Position numbers and translations under genes: made by a program
Assembly (NCBI GenBank): GCA_003151625.1
Contig: PLYC01000020.1
Span: 28,981 to 92,980, forward strand
Direction of reading: 5' to 3'
Length of the DNA stretch: 64,000 nucleotides
Source of the DNA: Candidatus Doudnabacteria bacterium
GTDB lineage: Bacteria > Patescibacteriota > Doudnabacteria > UBA920
Notes under the pieces: model-generated
What the model was told of the DNA's origin: nothing
Seen by the model: only the letters and a program-made list of their open reading frames with translations
The model's database searches: none
Shown here: piece after piece, positions 21,658 to 53,961 of the stretch
How positions within the stretch are numbered: position 1 is the stretch's first letter
Layout of the letters: each line of letters opens with the position of its first letter

Positions 21658-23118
21658 ATGACTTTCAACTCCTTAGCATTTTTTATTTTCTTCCCGGTAG
21701 TTACCATTTTTTATTTTTACCTGCCTCACAAGTGGCGCTGGCTTTTTTTGCTTTTGGCCAGCTGCGTGTTTTATATGTTTTTAATTCCGGTTTATATTTT
21801 AATTTTGGCCGGAACCATTGTTATAGACTACATTGCGGGAATTTTAATTGAAAATTCCCGGGGGCATCGCAGAAAAATATTTTTAATAGTTAGTATTATT
21901 TCCAACGTAGGGGTTTTGGGATTTTTTAAATACTTTAATTTTTTTACCTCAAATTTTAACCACGTTGCCTCCCTTGTCCACTGGAATTATTCCCTGCCGC
22001 TTTTGGCCATAATTTTGCCTATTGGGCTGTCTTTCCATACTTTTCAGGCCATGAGCTACACCATCGAAGTTTACCGCGGAAAACAGAAAGCCGAGCGACA
22101 TTTTGGAATTTATGCGCTTTATGTTATGTTTTTTCCGCAGTTGGTGGCCGGGCCCATTGAACGGCCGCAGAATTTATTGCACCAGTTTTATGAGCCGCAC
22201 CAATTTGAATACAAACGGGTAACGGACGGTTTAAAGCGCGTTGGCGTGGGGCTGTTTAAGAAAGTTGTTATAGCCGACAGGCTTGCTGTATTGGTGAATC
22301 ACGTTTACGGCAATGTCCACGCTTACTCGGGACCCTCGTTGGTTTTGGCCGTGATATTTTTTAGCTACCAGATTTATTGCGATTTTTCCGGATACTCCGA
22401 CATTGCCATAGGCACGGCCCAGGTTTTGGGTTTTAATTTAATGGAGAATTTTAAGCGGCCTTATTATTCCAAATCCATTGCCGAATTTTGGCGGCGCTGG
22501 CACATTTCACTTTCCAGCTGGTTTCGGGATTATGTTTATATTCCTTTAGGCGGCAGCCGTGTGTCTTTGGGGAAGTGGGTATTCAATACTTTGGTGGTGT
22601 TTATGCTTTCGGGACTTTGGCACGGCGCCAACTGGACATTTGTTATTTGGGGGGGCCTGCACGGCGCCATGATTGCCCTGTCCAGGATTACAGAACCGCT
22701 TCGCCAGAAAGCCGTAAATTTTTTCCATTTAGCACAAACGGAATTTTATAAAATTTTCCAGATTGGGATAACTTTTTTGCTGGTCAGTCTGGCTTGGATA
22801 CTGTTCCGCGCCAATAGCCTGGGCGACGCGGTTTATGTTTTTACCCATTTGCTCGCGGGGAACTGGAATATTTTTAGTCTGAATCAAGTCAGGCTGCTGC
22901 TTGGGGGAATGGGTTTTACGTTTGACGCATTTTTGCTTAGCATTTGCGCTATTTTGGTTTTGGAACTGGTCCAGCTAAAACAGCGGCAAAATTCTATTTT
23001 AGAAGTTTTGGCCGGACAGCCGGTATGGCTGCGGTGGGGAATATACTACGTGGTGGTTTTGGCGCTGTTATTTTTTGGCGTCCAGGGCGGTTCGAAATTT
23101 ATTTATTTTCAATTTTAA
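21658..23118 (+). CDS. MBOAT-family membrane-bound O-acyltransferase (AlgI/DltB-like), copy 1
   Basis: 486 aa polytopic; conserved FHTFQAMSYTIEVYRG, FPQLVAGPIERP, WRRWHISLSSWFRDYVYIPLGG (catalytic His region). Confidence 0.8.
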   Translation: MTFNSLAFFIFFPVVTIFYFYLPHKWRWLFLLLASCVFYMFLIPVYILILAGTIVIDYIAGILIENSRGHRRKIFLIVSIISNVGVLGFFKYFNFFTSNFNHVASLVHWNYSLPLLAIILPIGLSFHTFQAMSYTIEVYRGKQKAERHFGIYALYVMFFPQLVAGPIERPQNLLHQFYEPHQFEYKRVTDGLKRVGVGLFKKVVIADRLAVLVNHVYGNVHAYSGPSLVLAVIFFSYQIYCDFSGYSDIAIGTAQVLGFNLMENFKRPYYSKSIAEFWRRWHISLSSWFRDYVYIPLGGSRVSLGKWVFNTLVVFMLSGLWHGANWTFVIWGGLHGAMIALSRITEPLRQKAVNFFHLAQTEFYKIFQIGITFLLVSLAWILFRANSLGDAVYVFTHLLAGNWNIFSLNQVRLLLGGMGFTFDAFLLSICAILVLELVQLKQRQNSILEVLAGQPVWLRWGIYYVVVLALLFFGVQGGSKFIYFQF

Positions 23119-23120
23119 CT

Positions 23121-24215
23121 ATGGCCGAACAGAACCGGGATATTAAAAAATTTGTTACCAGGGCAATTTTATTTGCGTTGCCTTTTTTGCTGGTAATATT
23201 TGCCGAGGTTATATTTTTACCTATTGACGCGTTTACTTTCCGTGTTTGGGAAGCGGCAGAAGTCGGTGCCCTGGGAAAGGCATTGCTTCCCGGGACTTAT
23301 TATCCTACTCTTCATATAATCAAAAATGAAGTGGGGGACTTGGGTCCGCATACCAAATATGCCGTAAAAAGAAACGTGGTTTGGAATACCGACCAATTTG
23401 GTTACCGGACCGAAAATTCTACCACCACGCCTGAAGTTGTTATTGTGGGGGATTCCACCATTGTGGGCACCGGCCTTTCGCAGCCGGATATTCTTTCGGA
23501 AGTTTTACAAAAGAAAACCGGACTCGCTACCTATCCTTTGGCCGCTTCCGGAATAGACCAATTTTTGGCAAGTCCGAGGTTTATTAACCATCCGCCAAAA
23601 GTAGTTGTACTGGCGTCCATAGAACGCAGTATTGTAAATACGCCAATGGCCCCATACTCAGGCCTTAGCGGCAAACTTAAAACATTTGTCAGGGATTTTG
23701 CTCAAACCAAATTTGTGGCGGCTTTGCGTCCGGTTACGATTTTTGTGGACAGACTGCTAAAGCAAAATATGTACCATTATTTTAAAGCCAGAATAGAAAG
23801 CGTAATGGTTCCTTCTTCTTTGCTCGTCTATAACACTCCAAAGCCAATGCTATTTTTGCAGGGCGATGCCGCTAATTTGCCGGTTCCAAACACGGACACC
23901 AACAGGGTTGCCCAAAGCCTCAAGCAGCTTAAAATTTTACTGGCAGCCCGCGGCATCAGGTTTATATTTTTACCGGTTCCCGACAAAGAAGATATTTATT
24001 GGCAATATATGCCGGCAAAAAAGCAGCCGATTTTTTTGCCGCAACTGATAAAGGAGCTTAAGGCCAATGGGGTCGAAGTGGTTGATACCCAGGCAATTTT
24101 TTCCGAGGAGTTAGCCAAAAACCAAACCCAGCTTTACCAGACCGACGACACACACTGGAACGCCGCAGGCGTCGAGCTTACAGCAGAAGCTCTTGCCCGC
24201 ATGTTAAAACCTTAA
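23121..24215 (+). CDS. SGNH/GDSL-fold O-acyltransferase partner (AlgJ/AlgX/DltD-like)
   Basis: 365 aa from ATG 23121 (the ORF-track start at 22944 overlaps the MBOAT and is rejected); N-terminal anchor, VVIVGDSTIVGTG (GDS block) and DDTHWN (DxxH block). Confidence 0.6.
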   Translation: MAEQNRDIKKFVTRAILFALPFLLVIFAEVIFLPIDAFTFRVWEAAEVGALGKALLPGTYYPTLHIIKNEVGDLGPHTKYAVKRNVVWNTDQFGYRTENSTTTPEVVIVGDSTIVGTGLSQPDILSEVLQKKTGLATYPLAASGIDQFLASPRFINHPPKVVVLASIERSIVNTPMAPYSGLSGKLKTFVRDFAQTKFVAALRPVTIFVDRLLKQNMYHYFKARIESVMVPSSLLVYNTPKPMLFLQGDAANLPVPNTDTNRVAQSLKQLKILLAARGIRFIFLPVPDKEDIYWQYMPAKKQPIFLPQLIKELKANGVEVVDTQAIFSEELAKNQTQLYQTDDTHWNAAGVELTAEALARMLKP

Positions 24216-30664: not shown

Positions 30665-30721
30665 AGCCGTATAAAATATGGTAAAATTAACCGGTAAATC
30701 ATTCATTTTTCGGTTAAAAAC

Positions 30722-32379: not shown

Positions 32380-33377
32380 TAATTACCAGGACACCGTTTC
32401 GCGTCCCGCTTGGGGGAGGGGGAACCGATTTGCCGGGGTTTTACAAAAAGCACGGCGGGTTTATTTTTAGCGCTACCATAGACAAGTACATGTACCTGAC
32501 GCTTAACCGTCCGGTGCTTGATTCTTTAATCAGAATTAAATATTCCGATTCGGAAACCGTTGCTTCAGTGAATGAAATTAAGCACGAGTTGGCGCGGGAA
32601 GCGCTAAGAATAACCGGCGTTTTGGACAGTGTTGAGGTAACATCTTTTGCCGACCTGCCCTCCGGTACAGGAATGGGGTCTTCTTCCAGTTATTTAATTG
32701 GGTTGCTTAAAGCATTGCATGTCATGCAAAGAACCGAAATGAGCGCGGAAGCTTTGGCCGAGGAGGCCTGCCATATTGAAATGGAAATTTTAAAAAGTCC
32801 GGTCGGCAAGCAGGACCAATACTTGGCCGCCTTTGGCGGATTTGTGGAAATGCACATTGGCAAAGACGGCAAAGTGGAAGTTAAGCGCCCAAAAATTAGC
32901 CTGGATACCACGGAAGAATTGCGCTTTAAAGTGGGAATATTTTTTACCAACAAGTTCCATAAGACTTCGGAAATTTTAAGCGGCCAAAACCGCGAAGCCG
33001 CGGTTGCGGAAAGCCAGGTGGAAAAGGCATTGCTGAGAATTAAGGAAATCGGGCTGCAGATAAAAAGTGAAATGGAAAAGGGTGACCTTTCCAATTTTGG
33101 AAAACTGCTGGATGAGCACTGGAAAGTAAAGAAAACTATGTCCAATAAAATTTCTGACCCTGAGCTCGATAAAATTTATGAGCTGGCTAAACAGCACGGA
33201 GCCGAAGGCGGCAAAATTATGGGCAGCGGCGGCGGCGGTTTGTTCTTCTTTTTCTGTCCCGAAGGCAAAAAGAAAATAAAAAATGTTTTGGAACAGCAAG
33301 GGCTGCGGGAGATGCCGTACGACTTTGAATCCGAAGGGTCAAAAGTGCTTTTAAATATTTACCAACAGCCGTTATAA
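32376..33377 (+). CDS. GHMP-family D-glycero-alpha-D-manno-heptose 7-phosphate kinase (HddA-like)
   Basis: 333 aa; MIITRTPFRVPLGGGGTDLPGFYKKHGGFIFSATIDKYMYL matches HddA N-terminus; GHMP motif PSGTGMGSSSS. Confidence 0.75.
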   Translation: MIITRTPFRVPLGGGGTDLPGFYKKHGGFIFSATIDKYMYLTLNRPVLDSLIRIKYSDSETVASVNEIKHELAREALRITGVLDSVEVTSFADLPSGTGMGSSSSYLIGLLKALHVMQRTEMSAEALAEEACHIEMEILKSPVGKQDQYLAAFGGFVEMHIGKDGKVEVKRPKISLDTTEELRFKVGIFFTNKFHKTSEILSGQNREAAVAESQVEKALLRIKEIGLQIKSEMEKGDLSNFGKLLDEHWKVKKTMSNKISDPELDKIYELAKQHGAEGGKIMGSGGGGLFFFFCPEGKKKIKNVLEQQGLREMPYDFESEGSKVLLNIYQQPL

Positions 33378-33380
33378 ATT

Positions 33381-34247
33381 ATGGAGTCTCCCAAAGATTT
33401 TAAAAATAAAGTTGTGGTTATTACCGGCGGGGCCGGGGGGATTGGGCAAGCCGTGTCAGCAGGCTTTGGTTTTTTGGGTGCCAGAATAATTATTCTGGGA
33501 AAGTCACGGGGGAATTTTAAAATCCTGCAAAAAAACCTGGGCAAAAAAATTAAACTTGAATTTTATGCTGTGGAAGTTAGCAAGGAACGGCAGGTTTGGG
33601 AGGCGGTTAAAAAAATTATTGCCAAGCATCATAAAATAGATGTGTTAATTAACGCGGCCGGAATTTTAGGGCCGGTGGGGCAATTTCATACCAATCCTCT
33701 TAAAGACTGGAGCAGGGTCATTAGCGTAAATTTAATCGGCACCGCTAATGTTTGCCACGCGGTGCTGCCTTATATGGTAAAACAAAAACAGGGAAAAATT
33801 ATTAATTTTTCCGGCGGCGGATCTGTGAATCCGTTCCCGAATTTCAGCGGCTACGCGGTTTCCAAAGCTGCCATTGTCCGGTTTACGGAAAATCTCGCTG
33901 CGGAGTACAGGGCCAGTAATATCCAGGTTAACGCGGTGGCGCCCGGCGCGGTGAATACCAAGTTTTTAAAAAACACGCTGGCGGCAGGTAAAAAACAAGC
34001 CGGGGAAAGCTATTACACTAAAGCTTTGGCCCAAAAACAGAATGGTGGCGATTCACCGCTTTTGGCGGCCGGACTTATTGATTTTTTATGCCGGCCGGAC
34101 AACCTTTTAACCGGCAAGTTAATTAGCGCGAAGTGGGACGACTGGAAAAAATTCACGGCAAAAGATATAGAGCTGTTAAACAACAATTCGGAATATACTT
34201 TAAGGAGAATAGACAATCAATTTTTTAAAGAGATAAAAAAGTCATGA
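33381..34247 (+). CDS. short-chain dehydrogenase/reductase (SDR)
   Basis: 288 aa; VVVITGGAGGIGQAV and YAVSKAA (YxxxK). Confidence 0.7.
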   Translation: MESPKDFKNKVVVITGGAGGIGQAVSAGFGFLGARIIILGKSRGNFKILQKNLGKKIKLEFYAVEVSKERQVWEAVKKIIAKHHKIDVLINAAGILGPVGQFHTNPLKDWSRVISVNLIGTANVCHAVLPYMVKQKQGKIINFSGGGSVNPFPNFSGYAVSKAAIVRFTENLAAEYRASNIQVNAVAPGAVNTKFLKNTLAAGKKQAGESYYTKALAQKQNGGDSPLLAAGLIDFLCRPDNLLTGKLISAKWDDWKKFTAKDIELLNNNSEYTLRRIDNQFFKEIKKS

Positions 34248-35276: not shown

Positions 35277-35882
35277 ATGGCTAACGAATTTATTTCCACG
35301 TATTTGTCCGAAGTTTCCGGGATTGCCCAAAAAATCAACCAGGAATCGGTAAACAAATTAGCGGAGCTTCTTGTGGAAGTCAGGGGACGCGGGGGTAGGC
35401 TGTTTATTTTGGGAGTAGGGGGCAGCGCGGGCAACGCTTCCCACGCCGTAAATGATTTCAGGAAAATTACGGGCATTGAAGCCTACGCTCCAACAGACAA
35501 TGTCTCCGAGCTGACGGCCCGGACAAACGACGAAGGCTGGGAAAGCGTGTTTGCCGCGTGGCTCAAAGGCAGCAGGCTTTGCGCCAAGGACATGGTTTTG
35601 GTTTTCTCGGTCGGCGGCGGCAACGCGAAAAAAAACGTCAGCGCGAATTTAGTCTCCGCGCTTAAGCTTGCCAAGCAGGTTGGTGCGGCAGTTGGCGGCA
35701 TAGTCGGCCCAAAGGGCGGCTACACAGCGGAGGTTGCCGATGCCTGTGTTATAATTCCAGAAGCCGATGCCTCGCGCATTACTCCTCATTCCGAAAGTTT
35801 CCAGGCTGTTATTTGGCATTTATTGGTCTCCGACCCGAGGCTGAAAACGACCCAAACCAAATGGGAGTCATTGGCAAAGTAG
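35277..35882 (+). CDS. gmhA: D-sedoheptulose 7-phosphate isomerase (GmhA, SIS domain)
   Basis: 201 aa; LFILGVGGSAGNASHAVNDFRK and VFSVGGGN SIS-domain motifs typical of GmhA. Confidence 0.75.
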   Translation: MANEFISTYLSEVSGIAQKINQESVNKLAELLVEVRGRGGRLFILGVGGSAGNASHAVNDFRKITGIEAYAPTDNVSELTARTNDEGWESVFAAWLKGSRLCAKDMVLVFSVGGGNAKKNVSANLVSALKLAKQVGAAVGGIVGPKGGYTAEVADACVIIPEADASRITPHSESFQAVIWHLLVSDPRLKTTQTKWESLAK

Positions 35883-37571: not shown

Positions 37572-38594
37572 ATGATAAATATTATTTCAAAAAGCCATAA
37601 TCGTTTGTTGGCTTCCGGACCCAAGAAGGTCGTGGACAATTTAATTAAGGGTTTGGATGCTATTGGTTATCCGTATGCCATAAATCGGCGCTTGGACGCC
37701 TGCCAAAGGCTTTGGATACACGACGATTTAGACGCCCTGTGGCAAATAAAAAAATTACCCACGGAGATTAAGGTGGCTATTGGACCGAATTTGTTTGTAA
37801 AGCCCTCGCAGGTGCCAAAGGGTTTGGATTTGTCGCGCGCGGTTTATTTGCAGCCTTCGCGCTGGACAGCGGACTTTTGGCAAAAGTTTGGCTTTAACGG
37901 CTGTCCGGTGGATGTTTGGCCCACGGGAATAGATACCACGGAATTTTCTCCTGCTTTGGGCGACAAAAGTTTTGTGCTGGTTTATTTTAAGCAGCGTTCA
38001 GCCGCGGAGCTGGAGTTTGTAAAGCAGGAGCTTGTAAGCCGGGGGCTTCATCATAAAGTTGTGCAGTATCCAAAATACCGGGAATCGGAATATAAAAAAA
38101 TGCTTGCCCAGGCGCGTTATATGATTTGGCTGGGCGGTCAGGAAAGCCAGGGGCTAGCGCTTCTTGAGGGCTTGAGCTGTAATATTCCCATGCTGGTCTG
38201 CGACGTAGGACGAATTGGCGACAGCGTTGTATCAAAAAAAAATACCGGCCTGTTTACCGGGGAAGAAAGTGTTTTTCCCGCCACTAGTGCGGAATATTTT
38301 GACAGCCGTTGCGGTATAAAAATAAAACAGTTAAAAGAGTTGCCTTCCGCTTTGGACCGAATGGAAAAAGAATGGAAAGCTTTTAACCCGCGTGAATATA
38401 TTTTACAAAGTTTAAGCTTGGAAAAACAGGCCAAAGATTTTGTGGAAATTTACCAAAAGCATTTTGGTTTGGGTTTTGGGGAGGGATTTGGTGAAAAATT
38501 GTTGAATCGGGGCAAGTGGAAAAACGACATTTGGCGGTATAAGGCTGTCGGATGGGCTAAAGACTGTATTAAAATTTTGCAAAGAGCCGTATGA
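37572..38594 (+). CDS. putative GT-B fold glycosyltransferase (GT4-like C-terminal motif)
   Basis: 340 aa; RYMIWLGGQESQGLALLEGLSCNIPMLVCD resembles the E-x7-E region. Confidence 0.4.
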   Translation: MINIISKSHNRLLASGPKKVVDNLIKGLDAIGYPYAINRRLDACQRLWIHDDLDALWQIKKLPTEIKVAIGPNLFVKPSQVPKGLDLSRAVYLQPSRWTADFWQKFGFNGCPVDVWPTGIDTTEFSPALGDKSFVLVYFKQRSAAELEFVKQELVSRGLHHKVVQYPKYRESEYKKMLAQARYMIWLGGQESQGLALLEGLSCNIPMLVCDVGRIGDSVVSKKNTGLFTGEESVFPATSAEYFDSRCGIKIKQLKELPSALDRMEKEWKAFNPREYILQSLSLEKQAKDFVEIYQKHFGLGFGEGFGEKLLNRGKWKNDIWRYKAVGWAKDCIKILQRAV

Positions 38595-38748
38595 CCGGAT
38601 TAAGTATGTGTTACACGTTTAAAAGTCCGTTCGGCAACAGGCTCTGTATAAAAGATAGGTTATTGTGCATTGAAAATACCGAGGAAATCAGCTATAATTT
38701 TTTTAAGTTAAAGAAATAAGGTGGCAATTTGCCTGGAAAGCCAATTTT

Positions 38749-39084
38749 ATGTTTAATATCGGCGTTGATGTTATAGAAATAAGCCGGTTTAGGTCAATAG
38801 AAAATTTAGAACGTGCAGCGGAATTTTTTTTGCTGGAAGAGGAACTGGAGATGGCTCGCCAGGCACCCGACATTTATCAGCATCTGGCTTCGCGATTTGC
38901 CTTAAAAGAGGCGGTTATTAAAGCCATGCCGGAGGCGATTTTTTACCATGATTTTCAAATAGTTAAGCAGGGGACGGCGCCCAAAGTCAAATTGTTGAAA
39001 GAGCACTTAAAAGAATACCAGGTTGCCGTGAGTTTGGCTCACACCGAAACTTCCGCCATTGGTTTTGCCATGGTTAATTTTTAA
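38749..39084 (+). CDS. acpS: holo-[acyl-carrier-protein] synthase (AcpS-type 4'-phosphopantetheinyl transferase)
   Basis: 111 aa; MFNIGVDVIEISRF...RFALKEAVIKA matches AcpS motifs (G.D..EI.R / RFA.KEA..KA). Confidence 0.65.
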   Translation: MFNIGVDVIEISRFRSIENLERAAEFFLLEEELEMARQAPDIYQHLASRFALKEAVIKAMPEAIFYHDFQIVKQGTAPKVKLLKEHLKEYQVAVSLAHTETSAIGFAMVNF

Positions 39085-39087
39085 AAT

Positions 39088-40833
39088 ATGGACTCGTTAA
39101 CTTACTTTAAACTCGCAAATTCATTGCCCGAATTAAATCCCGGAGATTTTTCCCAGAAAATTAAAGTTAATTTGCTGACTAATTTTACCGATGACATTCT
39201 TGCAAAAATGCTCACCGGCGCTTTTATAAATGTAGGAATTTATCCGGAATTTTTTAAAGTCCCTTATAAGCAGTATGTGGTTTATTTAAAGAATAAAGAT
39301 AGTAAATTATTTTCCGCTCCGGCGCAGGTCACTTATATTTTTTTTGACATTAGTTCGTATATGCCTTCGGAATTGGCGGCACAGAGCGGCGAGGAATTTC
39401 CAGGTTTGTTGGAAGACATCAAGGATTATTGCCAAAAACAACAGGGGATTGTGGTCATGAATAGTTTTATTAGGCCATATGTAAGTGCTTATGGGAACTT
39501 ATATGGGGACAACCCATTATTTAATTTGGTTGGTAGTTTTAATGACCGGTTACAGAAGCTCGCTGCGGAGTTACCAAATTTTTACGTTTTTGATACAAAT
39601 CAGCTTATCCATTCAGTGGGGGAGGATAGTGCCCGCGACATGCGGGGCATGTATGCTTTTGACATACCCTTCAAAACGGATTTTTTTGAGCAACTGACAA
39701 GGCACTGGATAAATTACGCCTTAAATTTGTTGGGAAGGGTGAAAAAATGCATAGTTCTGGATTTGGATAACGTGCTCTGGGGAGGAGTTTTGGGCGAGGT
39801 TGGTGTTGATGGAATTGCCTTGGGTCCTACTTATCCGGGCGTTGCTTTCCAGAATTTTCAGCGTGCCCTATTGGAATATTATGAGCGGGGTGTTTTACTC
39901 GCCATAAACAGCCGTAACAATGAGCGGGATGTGGAGGAGGTTTTTAGCCAGCATCCTTATATGCTGCTTAAGCCTCAGCATTTTGCGGCTTCCAGGATAA
40001 ACTGGAAAAATAAGGCGGATAATTTTTTGGAAATCGCCAAGGAATTGAATTTAGGATTGGACAGTATGGTTTTTTTGGATGACGATCCGGTAAACCGGGA
40101 TTGGGTCCGGCAAAATGTCGGCCAGGTTTTAGTGCCGGAATTCAGTCTGGAGCCCGAGTATTATTCCAAAACCTTGCATGACCTGCCGGTATTCACGCCT
40201 TTTAACCTGACTGCGGAAGATAAATTAAAAGGGCAAATGTATTCGCAGGAGAAGCGAAGGACGTCGGCGCAGGCCGCCTCGCAGACTTTTGATGACTACC
40301 TGAAGCAGCTATTGGTCAAATTGGAGATCTCACTTAATAACGCATCGCAGATTCCCAGACTATCGCAAATGACTTTAAAGACCAATCAGTTTAATTTTAC
40401 CACCAAAAGATATACGGAAAAGGACATTGAAAAATTAATGCAGGAGGGTTTGGTTTTTGCCGCCGATATTTCCGACAAATTTGGCGGTTACGGGATAACG
40501 GCTTTGGCCATTATCACCAAAGATCCCGGCAAAGAAGGCGGCGCGATTTTGGATTCCTTTTTGTTAAGTTGTCGCGTGCTCGGCAGAGGCGTGGAACGTT
40601 CTTTTTTTGATTTTCTAATCGGACAAGCATTCGCCGCCGGTTTTAAGGTTTTGAGTGTGCCCTTTTTTGCTTCTGCAAAAAACGTCCCGGCAAGAGAGTT
40701 TTTAGACAAGTTGGGGTTGTCTGTTGAGTTGGAAACTAACGAAAGCCTTATCCGCCGTGTCGTTATTCCGGAATATTTGTCCAACTTGGCCGAGCCGGAA
40801 TCTATAACCATTAATTATGAAAAAAAGATATGA
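39088..40833 (+). CDS. FkbH-like HAD-superfamily (subfamily IIIC) carrier-protein loading enzyme
   Basis: 581 aa; HAD motif I CIVLDLDNVLWGGVLGEVG, LAINSRNNE, FLDDDPVNR motifs of the FkbH domain; C-terminal acyltransferase-like region. Confidence 0.7.
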   Translation: MDSLTYFKLANSLPELNPGDFSQKIKVNLLTNFTDDILAKMLTGAFINVGIYPEFFKVPYKQYVVYLKNKDSKLFSAPAQVTYIFFDISSYMPSELAAQSGEEFPGLLEDIKDYCQKQQGIVVMNSFIRPYVSAYGNLYGDNPLFNLVGSFNDRLQKLAAELPNFYVFDTNQLIHSVGEDSARDMRGMYAFDIPFKTDFFEQLTRHWINYALNLLGRVKKCIVLDLDNVLWGGVLGEVGVDGIALGPTYPGVAFQNFQRALLEYYERGVLLAINSRNNERDVEEVFSQHPYMLLKPQHFAASRINWKNKADNFLEIAKELNLGLDSMVFLDDDPVNRDWVRQNVGQVLVPEFSLEPEYYSKTLHDLPVFTPFNLTAEDKLKGQMYSQEKRRTSAQAASQTFDDYLKQLLVKLEISLNNASQIPRLSQMTLKTNQFNFTTKRYTEKDIEKLMQEGLVFAADISDKFGGYGITALAIITKDPGKEGGAILDSFLLSCRVLGRGVERSFFDFLIGQAFAAGFKVLSVPFFASAKNVPAREFLDKLGLSVELETNESLIRRVVIPEYLSNLAEPESITINYEKKI

Positions 40834-41066
40834 GCAAATTGTCCAAAATTTTTTCCTCTGTTTTGAACATTGATGAAAGCAAAATCGTTCCCGAACTTTC
40901 CCCTCAAAACACTTCGTCTTGGGATTCCCTCAACGCCATAATTTTGATTACAGAAATTGAAAAAGTTTTTAATATAAAGTTTAATTATGATGAAGCCATG
41001 GATGTAAAAAATTATAACGACGTTTTAGTCCTGGTTAAGGCAAAAGGGGGAGACACTAATGCCTAA
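40830..41066 (+). CDS. acyl carrier protein
   Basis: 78 aa; phosphopantetheine attachment context TSSWDSLNAIILITEIEK (DSL); 4-bp overlap with FkbH gene. Confidence 0.65.
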   Translation: MSKLSKIFSSVLNIDESKIVPELSPQNTSSWDSLNAIILITEIEKVFNIKFNYDEAMDVKNYNDVLVLVKAKGGDTNA

Positions 41067-41490
41067 AGCCTCGATAGCAATCACTTTTGCTCAACTGCGG
41101 GTGGGAGATGTGGCGGGTTTTGCACAAAAATTTTCGCCAAAGATGGTCGCCGGTTTTGCCAAACTGTCGGGTAATTATAACCCGCTTCATACCGACCCCG
41201 TTTTTGCCGCGAAAACGGAATTTAAAAAACCAATTGCCTATGGCATGCAGGCGGGCGCGCTTTTTTCCCGATTGCTCGGAATGTATTTACCCGGCAAATA
41301 CGGAATATGCCTGTCACAAACTTTGTCTTTCCATAAACCCATTTATTTTAACACCAAAGTTTCAGTGGAAGGCAAAGTTTTGCAAAAGGTAGAAAGCCTG
41401 CATTTGGCTAAAATTGAAACTAAAATATTTAACTCGGCCGATAATGAGTTATTGGTTTCCGGAGAGGCCTTGGTAAAATTGCTTAAATGA
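41059..41490 (+). CDS. MaoC-like (hotdog fold) dehydratase
   Basis: 143 aa; GNYNPLHTDPVFA motif typical of MaoC dehydratase domain; overlaps ACP gene by 8 bp. Confidence 0.65.
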   Translation: MPKASIAITFAQLRVGDVAGFAQKFSPKMVAGFAKLSGNYNPLHTDPVFAAKTEFKKPIAYGMQAGALFSRLLGMYLPGKYGICLSQTLSFHKPIYFNTKVSVEGKVLQKVESLHLAKIETKIFNSADNELLVSGEALVKLLK

Positions 41491-42974
41491 CTTTTAACTC
41501 TCCCCAGTTTGTACTTTTTTTTATCGCGGTAGCGACTGCCTATTTTTTGATGCCCTACCGTTTTCGCTGGCTGCTGCTGCTGGGGGCCAGTTGCTATTTT
41601 TACATGGCGTTTATTCCGGCCTACGTCCTAATATTATTGGCTATGGTTGTAATAGACTATTTTGCAGGAATATTTATTGAAAAAAGTAGCGGCCACAGAA
41701 GAAAGTTTTTTTTAATTTTAAGTATATGTTCCAATATTGGAATTTTGGCATTTTTTAAGTATTTTAATTTTTTTTCCGTTAACCTCACCGTTTTAGCCCG
41801 ATTCTTGGACTGGAATTATAGTCTTCCGCTTCTGTCTTTGGCTCTTCCGTTGGGTTTGTCATTCCATACTTTTCAAGCTTTGAGCTACACTATTGAAGTC
41901 TATCGCGGCAAGCATAAAGCCGAGCGGCATTTTGGCATTTATGCCCTATATGTCATGTTCTTCCCCCAACTGGTGGCTGGACCAATTGAGAGGCCTCAGC
42001 ATTTATTGCCTCAACTCCACCAAAATCACGATTTTGATTACGAACGGGTTACCACCGGTTTAAAACGCATGGCTTGGGGATTTTTTAAAAAAATGGTAGT
42101 GGCAGACCATCTCGCGATTATGGTTAATATTGTTTACGGCAACCCCCAAAAGTTTTCCGGCCCGGCTTTAATTTTAGCCACTGTCTTTTTCGCTTTCCAG
42201 CTTTACTCCGACTTTTCCGCTTACACGGATATTGCCTTGGGTTCCGCCCAAGTGCTCGGAATAAAACTGGTGGAAAATTTTGAAAGGCCGTTCTTTTCCA
42301 AATCCATTGCCGAGTTTTGGCGCCGCTGGCACATCTCCCTGTCGACTTGGTTCAGGGATTATGTTTTTTATCCGTTGGCTTTTGGTTCCAAAAATACCAC
42401 GCGCCTGAAATTATACTTTGCCATTATGGCCACCTTCCTCCTAAGCGGCCTCTGGCACGGGGCCGGCTGGACTTACGTGGTAATGGGCGGCCTGTACGGA
42501 TTTTTTATTTGTTTTTCCCAGGCCACCAAAGCTTATCGGGACAGTATTATTCATTTTTTTAGACTGGACCGCGCCCCGGCGTTATTGCGGTTGTTGCGGG
42601 TTGGCACGACTTTTGTTTTGGCTTGCATAGCCTGGATTTTTTTTCGCGCGGTAAATTTAACGGATGCCTGGTACATCCTATTCCATTTGGGTTCGGGGCT
42701 GGGTTCTTTTTTGGACCGGTTTTACAGTTATTATGTCTGGAAAAATCTTCTTTCTCTAAATGGTGCAATGACAGACAGGAAAACAATAATAGTTTGTCTT
42801 TTGGGGATAGCGGTAATTATGCTTTCGGAGTTGCTCCAGCGGCAGGCTTCCTTATGGCAGTGGCTGCCTGCGCAACCAGCTTATGCCAGATGGCCTTTGT
42901 ATTACTTAGTCGTGGGTTCTATTTTGTTGTTTGGCGTGTTCGGCGCGAAGCAGTTTATTTATTTCCAATTCTGA
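41487..42974 (+). CDS. MBOAT-family membrane-bound O-acyltransferase (DltB/AlgI-like), copy 2
   Basis: 495 aa; ~65-70% aa identity to copy 1 (FHTFQALSYTIEVYRGKHKAERHFGIYALYVMFFPQLVAGPIERP; WRRWHISLSTWFRDYVFYPL). Confidence 0.8.
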   Translation: MTFNSPQFVLFFIAVATAYFLMPYRFRWLLLLGASCYFYMAFIPAYVLILLAMVVIDYFAGIFIEKSSGHRRKFFLILSICSNIGILAFFKYFNFFSVNLTVLARFLDWNYSLPLLSLALPLGLSFHTFQALSYTIEVYRGKHKAERHFGIYALYVMFFPQLVAGPIERPQHLLPQLHQNHDFDYERVTTGLKRMAWGFFKKMVVADHLAIMVNIVYGNPQKFSGPALILATVFFAFQLYSDFSAYTDIALGSAQVLGIKLVENFERPFFSKSIAEFWRRWHISLSTWFRDYVFYPLAFGSKNTTRLKLYFAIMATFLLSGLWHGAGWTYVVMGGLYGFFICFSQATKAYRDSIIHFFRLDRAPALLRLLRVGTTFVLACIAWIFFRAVNLTDAWYILFHLGSGLGSFLDRFYSYYVWKNLLSLNGAMTDRKTIIVCLLGIAVIMLSELLQRQASLWQWLPAQPAYARWPLYYLVVGSILLFGVFGAKQFIYFQF

Positions 42975-42980
42975 GGTATT

Positions 42981-44117
42981 ATGAAAAGATTCTTTTTAAA
43001 AGTTTTTGCCTTGTGTCTGCCTTTTATTTTGCTTTTGGCTTTTCCTCTGCTCGTCCAGCTTAAGTCCGGAGAGCTTTTATCCGCTCAGGATGTAATTAAG
43101 CAACAAATTTCAAAACAGCGGCAAGTATTATACGGACCCGCCTACAGCAATCAGAACGATTATTATAAGCTAACAATGGCCAGCCGGTTGAAACCGGAAA
43201 TTTTGGCTTTAGGGGATTCTAAAGTTTTGGGGTTTAGGGCCGGGTTTTTTAAACAGCCCGGACAGTTTTATAATGCCAACTCCGTAATTTACGCGCCGAA
43301 CGAATTTAAAGATTTTGTTTCCGCGTTGCCTCAAAAGCCAAAGCTATTGATTATCAATATCGATCCGGTTGAATACGATCCCGGTCTCCCAACCAGCACA
43401 AGCGACATTACTAAGCAGTTTACGGTCGGATCGGTTTGGGACAACGACACTAACATTTTTTTTAACAGCTTTTTGTCGGTTTATACCGATTATTTCAAAA
43501 ATAAATTTTCCCTGCGGCAGCTGTTCCAAAACCAGGGAGTGAAAAAAATTGGCTTGACTGCGTTAATAAACGGACAGGGAATAAGGAATGACGGTAGTTA
43601 CTATTTCGGGTCGGATTCGGCAGACCCAACCCATGCCGGCAACATTAGCCGCGTGGCTCACATAGTAGATTTTGTTCAGCACAACGGAGGCAGTCCCAGT
43701 GGCAATAATTTTTCCGAAGCCGGTGTATTGCAGCTGGAAGACTTCTTTAATTATTGTCAGAAAAATAATATTTACGTTATCGGCTACATCTCGCCCCAAC
43801 CGCATGCGGTCGTAGAAGCATATAAAAATAATCCGGTTTACGCTTATATGTTTTTGACGGATTCAAAAATCAGGCCGCTGTTTGAAAAATTTCATTTTGG
43901 GTTTTTCAACTATTTTGACTTAGCATCGCTCAGCGCGCCGGACTCCGAATCGTACGACGGTTATCACATTACTGAAAAAGCCACCCTGCGAATACTTATT
44001 AAAATGGCCCAGCAAGATCCGGTTTTGCAGCAGCAGGTCGATTTGAAATTCTTGCAGAAAACTCTGGCTGAAGCAAAGGGGCAGAACGATGTTTTAGCGG
44101 ATCCTGCCGCCAATTAG
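42981..44117 (+). CDS. SGNH-like / DltD-like periplasmic partner of MBOAT copy 2
   Basis: 378 aa; N-terminal anchor; ILALGDSKVLGF (GDS block) ; position directly after MBOAT as in AlgI-AlgJ and DltB-DltD pairs. Confidence 0.5.
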   Translation: MKRFFLKVFALCLPFILLLAFPLLVQLKSGELLSAQDVIKQQISKQRQVLYGPAYSNQNDYYKLTMASRLKPEILALGDSKVLGFRAGFFKQPGQFYNANSVIYAPNEFKDFVSALPQKPKLLIINIDPVEYDPGLPTSTSDITKQFTVGSVWDNDTNIFFNSFLSVYTDYFKNKFSLRQLFQNQGVKKIGLTALINGQGIRNDGSYYFGSDSADPTHAGNISRVAHIVDFVQHNGGSPSGNNFSEAGVLQLEDFFNYCQKNNIYVIGYISPQPHAVVEAYKNNPVYAYMFLTDSKIRPLFEKFHFGFFNYFDLASLSAPDSESYDGYHITEKATLRILIKMAQQDPVLQQQVDLKFLQKTLAEAKGQNDVLADPAAN

Positions 44118-44186
44118 AGCCCTTTGTTTCGGGATTTAAAATTGCCTGTCGTTCTGTTCGTCTGATTAATCATTTAAATCAAATCT

Positions 44187-44996
44187 ATGCCCAAAGTTTC
44201 CATAATAATGTCAACCTATAACGACGCCGAGTTTTTGCCTGAGGCCATGCAAAGCGTTTTGGGGCAGAGTTTTAATGACTTTGAATTTTTAATAGTTGAC
44301 GATAATTCTTCAGATACAACAAAAAATATTCTGGCAGATTATCAGGTTAAAGACCCCAGGATTATTTTTTGGAGCAACCCTGTTAACCAAGGCTTGACCA
44401 AAAATTTAAATGCCGCCCTGGCTAAGGCCAGGGGAGAATTTATGGCTCGCCTGGACAGTGATGACGCCTGGTTGGATAAAAATAAGCTTAAAAAACAATT
44501 GGACTTTCTGGACAAGAATCCAAATTATTGTTTAGTTGGCTGTTGGGCGGAGGTATGCGGCCCAAAGAACAAGAAACTTTATGACTTAAAATATCCTGCC
44601 GGGGACGGGGAGATCCGCGAACAGTTACTGGTTAGGAATTGTTTTGTTCACAGCGGTATTTTGGCCAGGACAAACGCTGTTAAAGAAGCGGGTGTTTACG
44701 GCGCAGGCCGTCAATATATAGAGGATTACGCACTATGGCTGGAGCTTGGAAAGAGGTATAAGTTTGGCAATATTCCGGAGATTATGGTAAGCTACCGCGT
44801 GAATGATTTGGGCATAACCCGGACAAAAAATAAAGAACAAATTAAAGCGGTACTGTCTTTAATTAAGGAATACCGCAATGCCTACCCTAACTATGCTTTG
44901 GCATTACTTAAGTGGTCTTTACAATACGCCTTAAGTTTTGTAGGCTTAACAGGAAGAGTAAATGTCTTAAAAAAAATCTTTAAGAAAGAGATCTAA
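44187..44996 (+). CDS. glycosyltransferase family 2
   Basis: 269 aa; VSIIMSTYNDAEFLPEAMQSVLGQSFNDFEFLIVDDNSSD; LDSDD motif. Confidence 0.75.
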   Translation: MPKVSIIMSTYNDAEFLPEAMQSVLGQSFNDFEFLIVDDNSSDTTKNILADYQVKDPRIIFWSNPVNQGLTKNLNAALAKARGEFMARLDSDDAWLDKNKLKKQLDFLDKNPNYCLVGCWAEVCGPKNKKLYDLKYPAGDGEIREQLLVRNCFVHSGILARTNAVKEAGVYGAGRQYIEDYALWLELGKRYKFGNIPEIMVSYRVNDLGITRTKNKEQIKAVLSLIKEYRNAYPNYALALLKWSLQYALSFVGLTGRVNVLKKIFKKEI

Positions 44997-46303
44997 TGCA
45001 GGGAAGCAAGGGGCTAATAAAATTTTGGTTAATTTTTGTGCCGGTGACGGCGTTGTTTTATGTTGGCCTATGGCTGTCGATAATTTTTAGATACCAGGAC
45101 ACCCTGGGGCACGCTTCGACCGCACAGCTATTGCAAACATTCAGCTATATTTTTTTGCTGTGGCTGGTTGTGTTTTTTATTCACGGCCTGTTTGAGGTCG
45201 GGGTGTTTCGTCGTTATACCGGAATGGTGTTTAGTTTGGCCTCGGCTATGGCAGTCAATGTTCTTATCGCGGTTATTTATTTTTACTTCCAACCCAACCT
45301 AATTCTTACCCCGAGGCGTTTTTTGCTTATTGATGTAATTATAACTTTTATTTTGCTGCTCGTTTGGTATTTATTAATGAAGTATTTTTTGCAAAATAAG
45401 CTGGTGGAAGGAATTTATATTTTTTCTTTTGACGGAGAGCTGTGGGAATTGGAGAAAGAAATATTGGCACACGGTTATTTGGGGTATAAAGTTTTAGGCC
45501 GTCTTACAGGAGGTTCTCTGGGTGAGGCTAAGGTTGAAAAAAATTCCATTATTATTCTGCCCGATAATTTGCATTCTACTCCTCAGGTCAGCGAACAGCT
45601 TTACCGTTTAAGGACGAGCGGGGTAATATTTTACAATCATAAGGATTTTTACGAACTGCTTCTCCGCCGGATTTATCTTTCCGATTTAAACGAGTTGTGG
45701 TTTTTGGAAAATATCGATTACCAGGAAAAAAGGTTTTACAATATCGGCAAAAGGATTGTGGATATAGCGCTGGGTTTTATTGGCATATTTTTTTTCCTTC
45801 TTAGCTATCCTTTCTGCGCATTGGCCATTAAGCTAAACAGCGCGGGGCCGACTTTATTTGTGCAGGAGCGGGTGGGCAAGCAGGGGAAACTGTTTAAGGT
45901 ATATAAATATAGAAGCATGAGCGGCGGATCGACCAATACCTGGACGCAGGTGGACGACCCCAGAATTACCCGAGCGGGAAAATTTTTGCGCAAAAGCAGA
46001 ATAGACGAATGGCCGCAGTTTATTAACCTTCTGCTCGGACATATTAGTTTGGTCGGGCCGCGTCCAGAACAACCGCATATTGTTGAACAGTTAAAAACCC
46101 AAATTCCGTTTTACGACGAAAGGCATCTTGTAAAACCCGGCATTACCGGTTGGGCACAGCTCAACATTTACGCCGGAAGCCTGGAAGAAAGCAAACTCAA
46201 ACTCCAATACGACCTTTACTACATTAAGCACCGCAGTTTTCTGTTTGATTTGGAAATAATTCTTAAGACAATTTATTACATATTCACGTGGCAAGGACGA
46301 TAA
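44996..46303 (+). CDS. polyprenyl glycosylphosphotransferase (WbaP/PglC-type initiating sugar transferase)
   Basis: 435 aa; C-terminal bacterial sugar transferase domain: KRIVDIALGFIGIFFFLL..., GPTLFVQERVGKQGKLFKVYKYRSM, DEWPQFINLLLGHISLVGPRPE. Confidence 0.8.
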   Translation: MQGSKGLIKFWLIFVPVTALFYVGLWLSIIFRYQDTLGHASTAQLLQTFSYIFLLWLVVFFIHGLFEVGVFRRYTGMVFSLASAMAVNVLIAVIYFYFQPNLILTPRRFLLIDVIITFILLLVWYLLMKYFLQNKLVEGIYIFSFDGELWELEKEILAHGYLGYKVLGRLTGGSLGEAKVEKNSIIILPDNLHSTPQVSEQLYRLRTSGVIFYNHKDFYELLLRRIYLSDLNELWFLENIDYQEKRFYNIGKRIVDIALGFIGIFFFLLSYPFCALAIKLNSAGPTLFVQERVGKQGKLFKVYKYRSMSGGSTNTWTQVDDPRITRAGKFLRKSRIDEWPQFINLLLGHISLVGPRPEQPHIVEQLKTQIPFYDERHLVKPGITGWAQLNIYAGSLEESKLKLQYDLYYIKHRSFLFDLEIILKTIYYIFTWQGR

Positions 46304-46468
46304 TTAAATATATCTGTGTAAAACTTTCTTAAACACAAGCAAAATATCAGCTTTTTGCTTATTTGACGGCAGTTTTTAAAAAGGTATAATTTAAATAGTG
46401 GGTTAAAATAAAGGTTCCTCGCAGCATAACTGACGAGGTATTACTGCAAGGGAACAAACTATCATTTC

Positions 46469-46556
46469 GGAGCAAAGCTCCGAGGTATTGAACCTGTATT
46501 AGCTCCTCGGCTCGGAGATAAACAAGCAAGCTTGTTTATCTCTCTCGCCCTACGTC
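46469..46556 (-). repeat. intergenic structured repeat element, copy D (same family as 10264-10362)
   Basis: Reverse complement reads GACGTAGGGCGAGAG + hairpin GAGATAAACAAGC-aa-GCTTGTTTATCTC (46515-46542) + CCGAGCCGAGGAGCTAATACAGGTTCAATACCTCGGAGCTTTGCTCC. Confidence 0.6.
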
Positions 46557-46692
46557 GCGAATAAAACCATTTTTAAACAAAATAACATTAACCAAAAGAC
46601 GTCCCAGAGCCGCCCCCAGGCGGTTTTAATTTTAAAATAATTAACCTCCCAAAATTTCTTTTAGAAGTTTAGGTGGGTAAAGAACAAAATTT

Positions 46693-52062: not shown

Positions 52063-52105
52063 TGACAAAATTGAACAAAATTAAATAAAATTGACAAAAT
52101 TAGGG
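52063..52105 (+). repeat. four phased direct repeats of A(C/T)AAAATTRA with ~10-bp period right after pilB stop
   Basis: TGACAAAATTGAACAAAATTAAATAAAATTGACAAAATTAGG. Confidence 0.45.
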
Positions 52106-52290
52106 AACAAGAAAAGTAAGATCTACCTATAACATCCCAGTGTTCCATCCCGGAATTTTTTACGTTTAAGCAAATCATCAGCCGTAAAAATATCCGGGAT
52201 CCAGGAAAAAAGTAAAAATAAAGTTTACCACAGAACCGGGCCTCGGATATTTTTCAGACGATAATAATCCGGAAGCTGAAAAATTCCGGA

Positions 52291-52737: not shown

Positions 52738-52748
52738 TTCAGCGGTAT

Positions 52749-53957: not shown

Positions 53958-53961
53958 AATT

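Follow-up and report, generated by a model that had tools for sequence, protein, structure and literature searches.

A predicted carrier-protein-dependent module for acylation of a surface glycan in a Candidatus Doudnabacteria genome

To our knowledge, no bacterial MBOAT other than DltB of teichoic-acid D-alanylation has yet been found to draw on a carrier protein for its acyl group. A locus in a Patescibacteria (CPR) genome, Candidatus Doudnabacteria, raises the question of whether there is a second such enzyme. In the window, by which we mean the whole stretch of 64,000 nucleotides that was analysed, six contiguous genes on the forward strand (38749-44117) encode an AcpS, an FkbH-family protein, an acyl carrier protein (ACP), a MaoC hotdog protein, an MBOAT and a membrane-anchored SGNH-fold protein. 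The original prediction was that this cassette decorates a cell-surface glycan with a three-carbon hydroxyacyl group by ACP-to-MBOAT transfer.

The reading frames and overlaps given in that prediction agree exactly with an ORF check of the region. The FkbH and ACP frames overlap by 4 nt (ACP start 40830, FkbH stop 40833), the ACP and MaoC frames by 8 nt (41059/41066), and the MaoC stop and MBOAT start by 4 nt (41487/41490), and all six frames are open and translationally coupled. The motifs DLDNVLW, DSL and WRRWHIS are each present, and the domain identities (ACPS, FkbH, PP-binding, MaoC_dehydratas, MBOAT) were recovered in profile searches. The proposed glycan-operon setting was found as well, with GT1 upstream and GT2 and the initiating Bac_transf downstream, so that glycosyltransferases and an initiating sugar-phosphate transferase flank the cassette. 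The window also holds type IV pilus genes and a gene for a Wzy_C+TPR protein. A promoter-like site, TTGAAA-17-TATAAT (38670..38698, + strand), precedes AcpS in a gap of 154 nt. With 11 of 12 positions matching, it ties for the best site in 38300-46600; it is a possible promoter of the module's own and we give it little weight, since the total of promoter-like sites in that interval is not above the shuffled expectation. Judged by gene order, the arrangement of the cassette is not a product of chance, and it recurs in many independent genomes.

The first gene (38749..39084, +) encodes an AcpS-type 4'-phosphopantetheinyl transferase of 111 residues, which matches PF01648 (1.5e-11, 44.7 bits, cut-off 25) and TIGR00556 (58.3 bits, cut-off 45.35) and has the single domain and the size, about 110-130 residues, of its family. 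It is predicted to prime the ACP of the module, a stand-alone protein of 78 residues (40830..41066, +) that scores 23.5 bits against the PP-binding profile (cut-off 20.8). The modifiable serine on which the prediction depended, Ser33 of the DSL motif, is intact; all 74 ACP homologues compared have D32, and 73 of them have S33. No DltC model matched the ACP at E up to 0.01, where only sub-threshold AcpP-type models appeared. In CPR and archaeal loci the AcpS gene keeps its place directly before FkbH, and 16 of the 18 AcpS-carrying loci are CPR or archaeal as judged by organism titles, which agrees with the suggestion of a self-contained system. We know of no fatty-acid-synthesis ACP or AcpS in these lineages, and a dedicated priming step would for that reason be needed.

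The predicted loader (39088..40833, +; 581 residues) scores 292 bits against TIGR01686 (cut-off 146.65) over residues 218-545. An N-terminal FkbH_N domain is followed by a HAD-IIIC phosphatase domain and, at the C-terminus, a Cys-containing acyl-transfer domain; the N-terminal and HAD parts match PDB 3slr (BF1531) at 2.8e-41. HAD motifs I-IV (DxDx[T/V], S/T, K, DD) are all recognisable, V229 being an allowed variant of T. The 88 homologues compared show no variation at D225, D227, S275, K309, D331, D332, S494, C495 or R496, the last three forming the SCR cysteine motif seen in 88 of 88, so that the catalytic Cys and HAD residues required by the prediction are in place. Work on OzmB reportedly showed that the conserved C-terminal cysteine of the family holds the glyceryl intermediate. 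The dedicated ACP partner that is usual for FkbH proteins is provided by the ACP gene overlapping the FkbH stop codon, and an ACP directly follows FkbH in about 94 of the 125 loci that we surveyed.

The MaoC hotdog protein (41059..41490, +; 143 residues; PF01575 at 2.7e-16, 59.7 bits, gathering threshold 27) has Asn39 (codon AAT, 41173-41175) for the catalytic Asp. Its motif reads SGNYNPLH against the hydratase-2 pattern [ST]GDxNPxH, with the His kept. The Asp is present in all 31 homologues, Asn being unique to the window in the set of 32 sequences, and the change is the sole violation among 12 near-invariant columns; the protein is probably inactive or altered. The cassette SDR (ketoreductase) of the nearest relatives, loci L131 and L135, is absent from the window, whose distant SDR is only 28% identical to the cassette ketoreductases, themselves 51% identical to one another. 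FkbH-DH-KR-ACP loading modules are proposed makers of lactyl starters in trans-AT PKSs, for example bryostatin BryA, and the same set of activities is present as separate proteins (FkbH, ACP, MaoC and SDR) in L131, L135, L002, L003, L014, L050 and L132. Compared with the BryA-type module, the window is without a reductase, its dehydratase is without the catalytic Asp, and its free-standing parts would feed a glycan and not a polyketide. Because the catalytic Asp is lost and the cassette ketoreductase is missing, glyceryl is more likely as the acyl group in the window than lactyl or pyruvoyl, and the pyruvoyl- or lactyl-like group originally suggested to follow from MaoC dehydration is unlikely here.

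The MBOAT that follows, copy 2 of the window (41487..42974, +; 495 residues; PF03062 at 5.5e-23), has His282 in WRRWHIS, His324 in GLWHG and a C-terminal FIYFQF motif that is shared by 19 of 22 MBOATs. It aligns with DltB (6bug) at 2.9e-27, and H282 and H324 pair with the DltB histidines. Both are invariant in 18 homologues, and AlgI-type enzymes have both too. Against the DltB equivalog TIGR04091 copy 2 reaches 144.7 bits, far under the cut-off of 375, so that its description as DltB-like holds as a functional analogy and fails as a statement of family membership. In the JGI annotation, several close homologues are named AlgI and others DltB. No separate DltX was found in the window; the sole small ORF in the upstream gap has 42 residues. 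FIYFQF is a candidate for a DltX-like Tyr motif fused to the MBOAT C-terminus, with a weak match to the DltX Pfam model (E = 3.2) and an empty PDB search.

The last gene (42981..44117, +) encodes a protein of 378 residues without a Pfam or NCBIfam match in profile searches. It has block I (G78-D-S80), block V (D326-x-x-H329) and an SGNH fold, resembles carbohydrate esterases/acyltransferases and DltD, and gives its longest structural alignment with DltD. The protein is a distant DUF1574 relative of DltD-like architecture, and its earlier assignment as SGNH/DltD-like depends on motif and fold evidence, the likeness to DltD being tentative. It has no PF16822 (AlgX/AlgJ) match and is unrelated to the AlgX-like protein of the window.

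That AlgX-type SGNH protein (22944..24215, +; PF16822 ALGX at 9.1e-20), whose actual start codon probably lies beyond 23118, forms with MBOAT copy 1 (21658..23118, +; 486 residues, 56% identical to copy 2) the first MBOAT+AlgX pair of the window, at 21658-24215. Copy 1 lies 17 kb from the ACP. It is 59% identical to the L132 MBOAT, which directly follows an ACP, and its partner shares 43% identity with the AlgX-like protein paired with that MBOAT. The pair may be a second outlet for the same ACP; tandem double MBOAT+partner units behind one FkbH-ACP are found in L090, L091 and L094. In Adhaeribacter and a Clostridia MAG, MBOATs 54% identical to copy 2 are found beside related DUF1574-like partners but away from any ACP or FkbH gene, and copy 2 is no more diverged from these than from cassette-linked MBOATs. 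From such homologues we infer that the MBOAT family of copy 2 has no general need for a dedicated carrier protein.

FkbH with ACP is a widespread module of glycan loci, found in at least 595 species. The idea that FkbH in a glycan locus is unusual in itself was ruled out by this number, and by its occurrence in the Campylobacter jejuni island discussed below. In our survey, which was shaped by search patterns and includes related loci, an MBOAT was present within the fetched flanks in 21 of 125 FkbH loci (about 1 in 6). It directly abuts a cassette gene in 16 of these 21, and in two more one small ORF lies between. MBOAT-adjacent cassettes occur in at least five separate FkbH clades of neighbor-joining trees without support values, including those of Micrarchaeota and Nitrosopelagicus. 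The linkage of FkbH, ACP and MBOAT thus proved to be conserved. The AcpS-FkbH-ACP-MaoC(-SDR)-MBOAT-partner cassette is kept in independent CPR genomes, and across phyla the cassette travels with glycan genes. Minimal FkbH-ACP-MBOAT-partner units without MaoC or SDR (L090-L094, L102, L124) leave no other client, except in L124, which carries an AT3 gene too. About 5 in 6 FkbH+ACP loci have no MBOAT nearby, hence the loader does not need one; other candidate clients in these loci are LbH acyltransferases, DegT aminotransferases and a "cluster 9" protein. An uncharacterised protein directly flanks ACP or FkbH in 18 of 18 loci and is never found together with an adjacent MBOAT, a mutual exclusion that would be expected of alternative ACP clients.

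These observations suggest that the cassette probably loads a three-carbon glyceryl group onto the ACP and passes it via the MBOAT to a surface glycan. AcpS would convert apo-ACP to holo-ACP. The FkbH enzyme, as a member of its family, would take 1,3-bisphosphoglycerate, its HAD domain stripping the 3-phosphate, and the glyceryl-S-Cys495 intermediate would be passed to the phosphopantetheine on Ser33 to give glyceryl-S-ACP. In related cassettes, MaoC and the dedicated SDR may turn glyceryl-ACP into enol-pyruvoyl/pyruvoyl-ACP and then lactyl-ACP; in the window, with Asn in MaoC and the SDR absent, the group most likely stays glyceryl. On the cytoplasmic side, MBOAT copy 2 would receive the acyl group that the ACP carries as a thioester and relay it across the membrane, a step suggested by conserved gene adjacency. 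By analogy with DltD, PatB and AlgX, the anchored SGNH-fold partner (Ser80, His329, Asp326) would place it on a glycan hydroxyl outside the cell. That the cassette is a self-contained module which depends on a carrier protein and O-acylates the glycan of the surrounding operon outside the cytoplasm we regard as somewhat better than an even proposition. The ACP-to-MBOAT hand-off, taken by itself, we hold to be marginally probable; it is synteny that points to it, since equally similar MBOAT+partner pairs exist without an ACP nearby.

The same pairs argue that the donor of copy 2 could be carrier-free acetyl, against which the synteny with ACP and FkbH speaks. Two neighbouring modules may then be independent, with copy 2 and its SGNH partner performing acetyl-CoA-dependent O-acetylation of the AlgI/PatA type and the C3 acyl-ACP serving a cytoplasmic transferase, which we consider possible yet doubtful. 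That transferase would place the C3 group on a nucleotide sugar or on a lipid-linked intermediate; an N-acyl group like that of glyceroyl-modified nonulosonic acids is one example. Separate modules would agree with the distance of copy 1 and its AlgX partner from the ACP, with the MBOAT-less majority of FkbH+ACP loci and their other clients, and with the C. jejuni island, where an FkbH-domain gene accompanies N-linked di-O-methylglyceroyl pseudaminic acid and no MBOAT is implicated (PMC7099621, PMC3068675). However, a domain scan of the cassette and the surrounding operon found no further recognisable acyltransferase in or beside the cassette, the MaoC stop and MBOAT start overlap, and an MBOAT, where present, nearly always touches the cassette itself (16-18 of 21 loci, at least five FkbH lineages), including minimal units with no other client apart from the L124 exception.

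Other objections bear on the acceptor and on whether the cassette works at all. The MBOAT superfamily acylates lipids and proteins besides glycans (PMC9558356), and with type IV pilus genes and a Wzy_C+TPR protein in the window the C3 group might go to a membrane lipid, a lipoglycan anchor or a surface protein (pilin, S-layer). We find this very unlikely given the position of the cassette between glycosyltransferases and the initiating transferase, its company of glycan genes across phyla, and an SGNH partner like carbohydrate esterases/acyltransferases and DltD. The loss of the MaoC Asp, with deletion of the cassette ketoreductase relative to the closest relatives, could be a sign of remodelling or decay of the cassette in this genome. 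That it is already a non-functional remnant is the most improbable of these readings, as every other catalytic residue is intact, the six frames are open and coupled, and the window proteins violate 0 to 2 near-invariant columns each, about the median of homologues. A glyceryl-only version would also be a viable design, because loci without any MaoC or SDR exist.

The proposed glyceryl route resembles several known systems in part. In the Dlt system (DltA, DltC, DltB, DltD, DltX) the loader is the adenylating DltA and the acyl group D-alanine, whereas in the window no AMP-binding (DltA-type) enzyme was found among the scanned genes (13.6 to 55 kb); an FkbH-type HAD/acyltransferase acting on a glycolytic acyl phosphate would fill that role, and the acyl group would be a C3 hydroxy acid. 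The window further differs in its AcpP-like ACP, an MBOAT below the DltB cut-off, a dedicated AcpS and its setting in a CPR bacterium, within a Wzx/Wzy-type glycan operon. With AlgI/AlgJ/AlgF/AlgX, PatA/PatB and WssH/WssI it shares an MBOAT followed by an extracytoplasmic SGNH-like partner in a polysaccharide locus, and copy 1 has a true AlgX-domain partner as in AlgI/AlgX-type systems. Those systems transfer acetyl and have no dedicated carrier protein or loader; copy 2, in contrast, is in an operon with AcpS, FkbH and ACP, and its partner is DUF1574-like and not AlgX/AlgJ. We know of no direct demonstration of the cytoplasmic donor of the AlgI/PatA/WssH class.

Polyketide pathways (methoxymalonyl-ACP, tetronates) also pair an FkbH-family enzyme with a stand-alone ACP (PMC7489565). 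Unlike them, the window has no PKS, FabH-like or FkbI/K/G tailoring genes, its FkbH has the extra FkbH_N domain typical of the non-PKS branch, and the proposed client, encoded in a glycan locus, is a membrane acyltransferase. The C. jejuni flagellin glycosylation island contains the FkbH-domain gene cj1302 (PMC7099621), and its glycan bears a glycerate-derived acyl group, di-O-methylglyceroyl-pseudaminic acid, the link between gene and product being putative (PMC7099621, PMC3068675). There an amide bond joins the acyl group to a CMP-activated nonulosonic acid of cytoplasmic origin, and no MBOAT/SGNH export step takes part. In agreement with the original prediction that the route is not a described one, a literature search found no published description of such FkbH-ACP-MBOAT glycan acylation.

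Whether the cassette represents a widespread second carrier-protein-fed MBOAT pathway beside Dlt, running from FkbH through ACP, an AlgI-like MBOAT and an SGNH partner to a surface-glycan ester, we judge to be evenly balanced. FkbH would then load a glycolysis-derived C3 hydroxyacyl group, glyceryl or, where MaoC and SDR are present, lactyl; SGNH partners, DUF1574-like or AlgX-like, would be interchangeable; one loader would feed two MBOAT/partner outlets in the window, L090, L091 and L094; and the pathway would span CPR bacteria, DPANN and ammonia-oxidising archaea, and other bacteria. If this is true, it would be the second carrier-protein-fed route of its kind after teichoic-acid D-alanylation, and a chemically different one, and AlgI-type MBOATs would recognise a phosphopantetheine thioester, not CoA as such. 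With its small soluble parts and one MBOAT, the unit would be tractable for the study of donor recognition by bacterial MBOATs. The envelopes of CPR bacteria and archaea are almost uncharacterised, and if the conserved FkbH-ACP-MBOAT-SGNH unit works as proposed, their surface glycans should bear glyceryl or lactyl O-esters that are so far unreported. The unit would also point to a probable function for the large non-PKS branch of FkbH proteins (at least 595 species), now annotated only as "HAD-IIIC family phosphatase".

The six genes of the module are contiguous on the plus strand (38749–44117), and their open reading frames match the coordinates of the original prediction exactly. Profile searches confirmed the domain assignments for five of the six products: an AcpS of 111 aa (38749–39084; PF01648, 1.5e-11; TIGR00556 above its cut-off), an FkbH-like protein of 581 aa (39088–40833; TIGR01686, 292 bits against a cut-off of 146.65, with a weak N-terminal match to FkbH_N), an ACP of 78 aa (40830–41066; PP-binding above the gathering score), a MaoC protein of 143 aa (41059–41490; 2.7e-16) and an MBOAT of 495 aa, termed copy 2 (41487–42974; 5.5e-23). 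The sixth protein (42981–44117; 378 aa) had no matches in Pfam and NCBIfam profile searches and is assigned as an SGNH-fold partner on the basis of its motifs and fold. Three of the gene junctions are overlaps of 4, 8 and 4 nt, and the other two are gaps of 3 and 6 nt. The top matches in homology searches are from Patescibacteria (CPR).

The predicted setting inside a glycan operon was borne out. The module is part of a long plus-strand operon, about 19.0–46.3 kb, which encodes nucleotide-sugar enzymes (a GDP-heptose-type set among them), a flippase of the Wzx type, GT1 and GT2 glycosyltransferases, FkbM methyltransferases and an initiating Bac_transf protein; an MBOAT+AlgX pair (21658–24215) is found earlier in the same operon. 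The heptose genes (17234–17917, 30062–33377 and 35277–35882) correspond to a GDP-D-glycero-D-manno-heptose-type pathway, with transaldolase/FSA, HAD phosphatase, epimerase, nucleotidyltransferase, GHMP kinase and SIS isomerase. Because these genes are in the operon and also flank the cassette of locus L003 from another genome, with TAL_FSA present in L001, the acylated glycan may contain heptose. Upstream of the operon is a 739-aa Wzy_C (O-antigen ligase-like) + TPR protein (13632–15851), with two paralogues in L001, which may act as an O-oligosaccharyltransferase in the glycosylation of pilin or S-layer. Just 3' of the operon is an 895-aa protein with LCAT-like alpha/beta-hydrolase and SpaA-type prealbumin-fold domains (47055–49742), and the type IV pilus genes PilB, PilC and PilM follow downstream (50308–55065). 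On the plus strand, a tRNA-Lys (CTT) gene (56933–57008) shares sequence with the stop-codon (3') end of ORF 56944–58515 on the minus strand. The first 6000 nt of the window have minus-strand genes and a GC content of 30–33%, against 40–48% elsewhere in the window, and may be a region of different origin.

Among the scored candidates, 5888 matched as FkbH proteins of the same architecture (E up to 1e-10), and FkbH relatives occur at at least 595 places, bacterial and archaeal, in a one-genome-per-species collection. Our neighbourhood survey sampled 125 non-redundant FkbH loci, 94 of which have an ACP, nearly always right 3' of FkbH; MaoC is present in 31, in some of them fused with a short-chain ketoreductase (SDR or KR). 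The neighbours are GT1, GT2, DegT, UDP-sugar dehydrogenase, LbH acyltransferases, AsnB-like proteins and polysaccharide deacetylases. Since such loci are widespread and have typical glycan-gene neighbours, the pairing of FkbH with ACP in glycan loci is common, although uncharacterised. A small VOC/Glyoxalase_4 protein (about 130–145 aa) is encoded beside the ACP/FkbH genes in 31 of the 34 loci having one (for example L069:11799–12230 and L111:10921–11316, besides about 30 other loci) and would be a tailoring enzyme alternative to MaoC/SDR, possibly an epimerase or isomerase that acts on acyl-ACP. AcpS genes are nearly confined to CPR or archaeal loci (16 of 18 AcpS-carrying loci), lineages not known to have a fatty-acid-synthesis ACP/AcpS. 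The self-contained look of the module, already remarked upon in the original prediction, is explained by this accompaniment of FkbH+ACP by AcpS.

The linkage of the MBOAT to FkbH and ACP recurs in other genomes. An MBOAT was present within the fetched flanks of 21 of the 125 FkbH loci. Sixteen of these have the MBOAT and a cassette gene as immediate same-strand neighbours, and two others have a single small ORF between them (in L111 a VOC-family gene of 131 aa, in L127 an ORF of 56 aa). In an FkbH tree (neighbour-joining, no support values), the cassettes next to an MBOAT are spread over at least five separate regions and include one Micrarchaeota and one Nitrosopelagicus locus. Three further loci were reached by protein look-up. 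The gene orders are AcpS-FkbH-ACP-MaoC-SDR-MBOAT-partner (L131) and MaoC-SDR-AcpS-FkbH-ACP-MBOAT-AlgX-like (L132); in L135 a pair of unannotated ORFs stands at the place of FkbH, between AcpS and MaoC-SDR-MBOAT-partner. The L135 MBOAT is the closest homologue of copy 2 (66% identity). In that locus ORFs of 305 and 168 aa without Pfam match fill the FkbH position (551–1996) and no ACP gene was called, and in L131 the MBOAT is a fragment of 330 aa with an ORF of 162 aa after it (5273–6756); these split-looking genes of the two nearest relatives could be assembly frameshifts or real decay. A metagenome scan with a single-protein query, which returned mostly distant relatives rather than close CPR ones, helped to find the minimal FkbH-ACP-MBOAT-partner units having neither MaoC nor SDR (L090–L094, L102, L124 and L125). 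Tandem double MBOAT+partner pairs stand behind a single FkbH-ACP in L090, L091 and L094. In L124 an AT3 (Acyl_transf_3) membrane acyltransferase is encoded right 3' of the partner (9408–10544).

The SGNH/DltD-like assignment of the sixth protein held at the level of fold and architecture; in sequence, the protein is of the DUF1574 type but divergent. It and its few relatives carry a hydrophobic helix at the N-terminus, and two motifs, G78-D-S80 and D326-x-x-H329, are invariant among them; these correspond to SGNH enzyme blocks I and V. The AF2 model (pLDDT 81, pTM 0.83) gave weak Foldseek matches only. The sixth protein shares 43% identity with the partner protein of the Taylorbacteria locus L135, and hhalign relates it (94%, E 1.4e-7) to a DUF1574 protein encoded 3' of a stand-alone Adhaeribacter MBOAT, with the G-x-S and D-x-x-H motifs lining up in the profile alignment.

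The two MBOATs of the window are 56% identical. An argument from this identity and a neighbour-joining tree for a recent duplication and a shared donor was rejected; the value is uninformative about a shared donor because the family is about 53–56% identical across phyla. Orthology does suggest that copy 1 is part of the same system: it shares 59% identity with the L132 MBOAT encoded directly 3' of the ACP, and the AlgX-like partners of these two MBOATs share 43%. Directly upstream of copy 1 is a 313-aa ORF (20650–21591) that has no Pfam match and is not similar in sequence to the other partner proteins tested. The C-terminal motif FIYFQF ends 19 of 22 MBOATs of the family, including both in the window (sites 42957–42974 and 23101–23118) and those of L003, L006, L014, L021, L050, L087, L090–L094, L111, L124, L128 and L132. 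The FIYFQF tail may be a fused tyrosine relay like that of DltX in the Dlt mechanism; the tail aligns end to end with the Pfam DltX profile, weakly (E = 3.2), and no matches were found in PDB or NCBIfam.

The catalytic residues on which the prediction depended, the HAD and Cys residues of FkbH and the ACP serine, proved intact across the collected homologues. FkbH D225, D227, S275, K309, D331 and D332 and the C-terminal S494-C495-R496 are invariant in an alignment of 88 sequences; among ACP homologues, D32 is kept in 74 of 74 and S33 in 73 of 74; and H282 and H324 of MBOAT copy 2 are invariant in 18 sequences and aligned with both DltB histidines. FkbH enzymes with a stand-alone ACP convert 1,3-bisphosphoglycerate to glyceryl-S-ACP (PMC7489565). 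We would expect glyceryl-ACP as the product of the window FkbH too, because it scores above the family cut-off and none of its motifs is disrupted.

The MaoC gene bears on what follows this step. Its hydratase-2 motif in the window is SGNYNPLH, and Asp occupies the catalytic position in all 31 cassette homologues and is retained in the nearest relatives; the Asn39 codon, AAT (41173–41175), is one transition away from GAT. General decay of MaoC was rejected, as this position is the single violation among 12 near-invariant columns. The window also lacks the cassette SDR, unlike its closest relatives, in which MaoC and a dedicated SDR come after ACP. The only other SDR of the window (33381–34247) was rejected as a displaced cassette reductase, at 28% identity against 51% among the cassette KRs of the relatives. 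Single MaoC-SDR fusion proteins (about 400–420 aa) occur beside FkbH in proteobacterial, acidobacterial and gemmatimonadal loci (L042, L043, L049, L052 and L077), which supports joint action of the two activities. The same combination of FkbH, DH and KR has been proposed to make lactyl starter units in the loading modules of some trans-AT PKSs. With neither the SDR nor the catalytic Asp of MaoC, the window module would likely deliver unprocessed glyceryl, as in the minimal loci, rather than lactyl or pyruvoyl; of the three-carbon groups originally proposed, glyceryl is thus favoured over the MaoC-derived alternatives.

The Dlt pathway is the nearest functional analogue, as both systems have a loader, a carrier protein, an MBOAT and an anchored SGNH-like protein. 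The module nevertheless falls outside the Dlt family on three counts: copy 2 reaches 144.7 where the DltB equivalog cut-off is 375, its carrier protein resembles AcpP, and the loader is FkbH whereas that of Dlt is an adenylating enzyme. In its MBOAT+SGNH half the module is similar to the acetylation systems AlgI/AlgX, PatA/PatB and WssH/WssI, and a 2022 review of bacterial membrane acyltransferases names AlgI, PatA, WssH and DltB as MBOATs (PMC9558356). A precedent for glycerate-derived glycan decoration is Campylobacter jejuni, which has an FkbH-domain gene in its flagellin glycosylation island (PMC7099621) and, in the same strain, produces di-O-methylglyceroyl pseudaminic acid (PMC3068675), although by cytoplasmic N-acylation and without an MBOAT. 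The route had not been recognised as a described one in the original prediction, and no paper describing glycan modification by an FkbH/ACP-fed MBOAT came up in our full-text literature search either; the only two co-mentions of FkbH and MBOAT were unrelated aeruginosin NRPS clusters.

The arrangement itself is real and conserved, and the main rival to acyl transfer from ACP to MBOAT is that two independent modules stand side by side. The MBOAT family is highly conserved. Homologues of copy 2 in Bacteroidota, Clostridia, Omnitrophota, Binatia and Margulisbacteria are all 53–56% identical to it, and in the two sampled, Adhaeribacter arboris and a Clostridia MAG, only the partner protein and no ACP/FkbH was found near the MBOAT. 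These stand-alone pairs imply that the family needs no dedicated carrier protein in general, and no feature of the copy 2 sequence marks ACP dependence. In most FkbH+ACP loci the neighbourhood lacks an MBOAT, which means that the ACP has other clients as well. One candidate is the uncharacterised cluster 9 protein (about 380 aa, no Pfam match), which directly flanks the ACP/FkbH genes in 18 of the 18 loci having one (L053:1667–2803 and 17 others, mostly Acidobacteriota). No locus combines it with a cassette-adjacent MBOAT, and in L087 it is present with the MBOAT distant, a pattern to be expected of alternative ACP clients, though these numbers are small and phylogenetically confounded. Against independent modules stands the repeated adjacency of MBOAT and cassette, and we regard juxtaposition as the less likely reading.

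The original interpretation is thus partly supported. We somewhat favour, at a little better than even chances for the model as a whole, a Dlt-like, FkbH-loaded module that would serve glycan O-acylation, with the ACP-to-MBOAT step inferred from synteny and glyceryl the most likely cargo in this genome. The module is of real interest for the field of cell-envelope acylation, and a few small proteins would suffice to test it.
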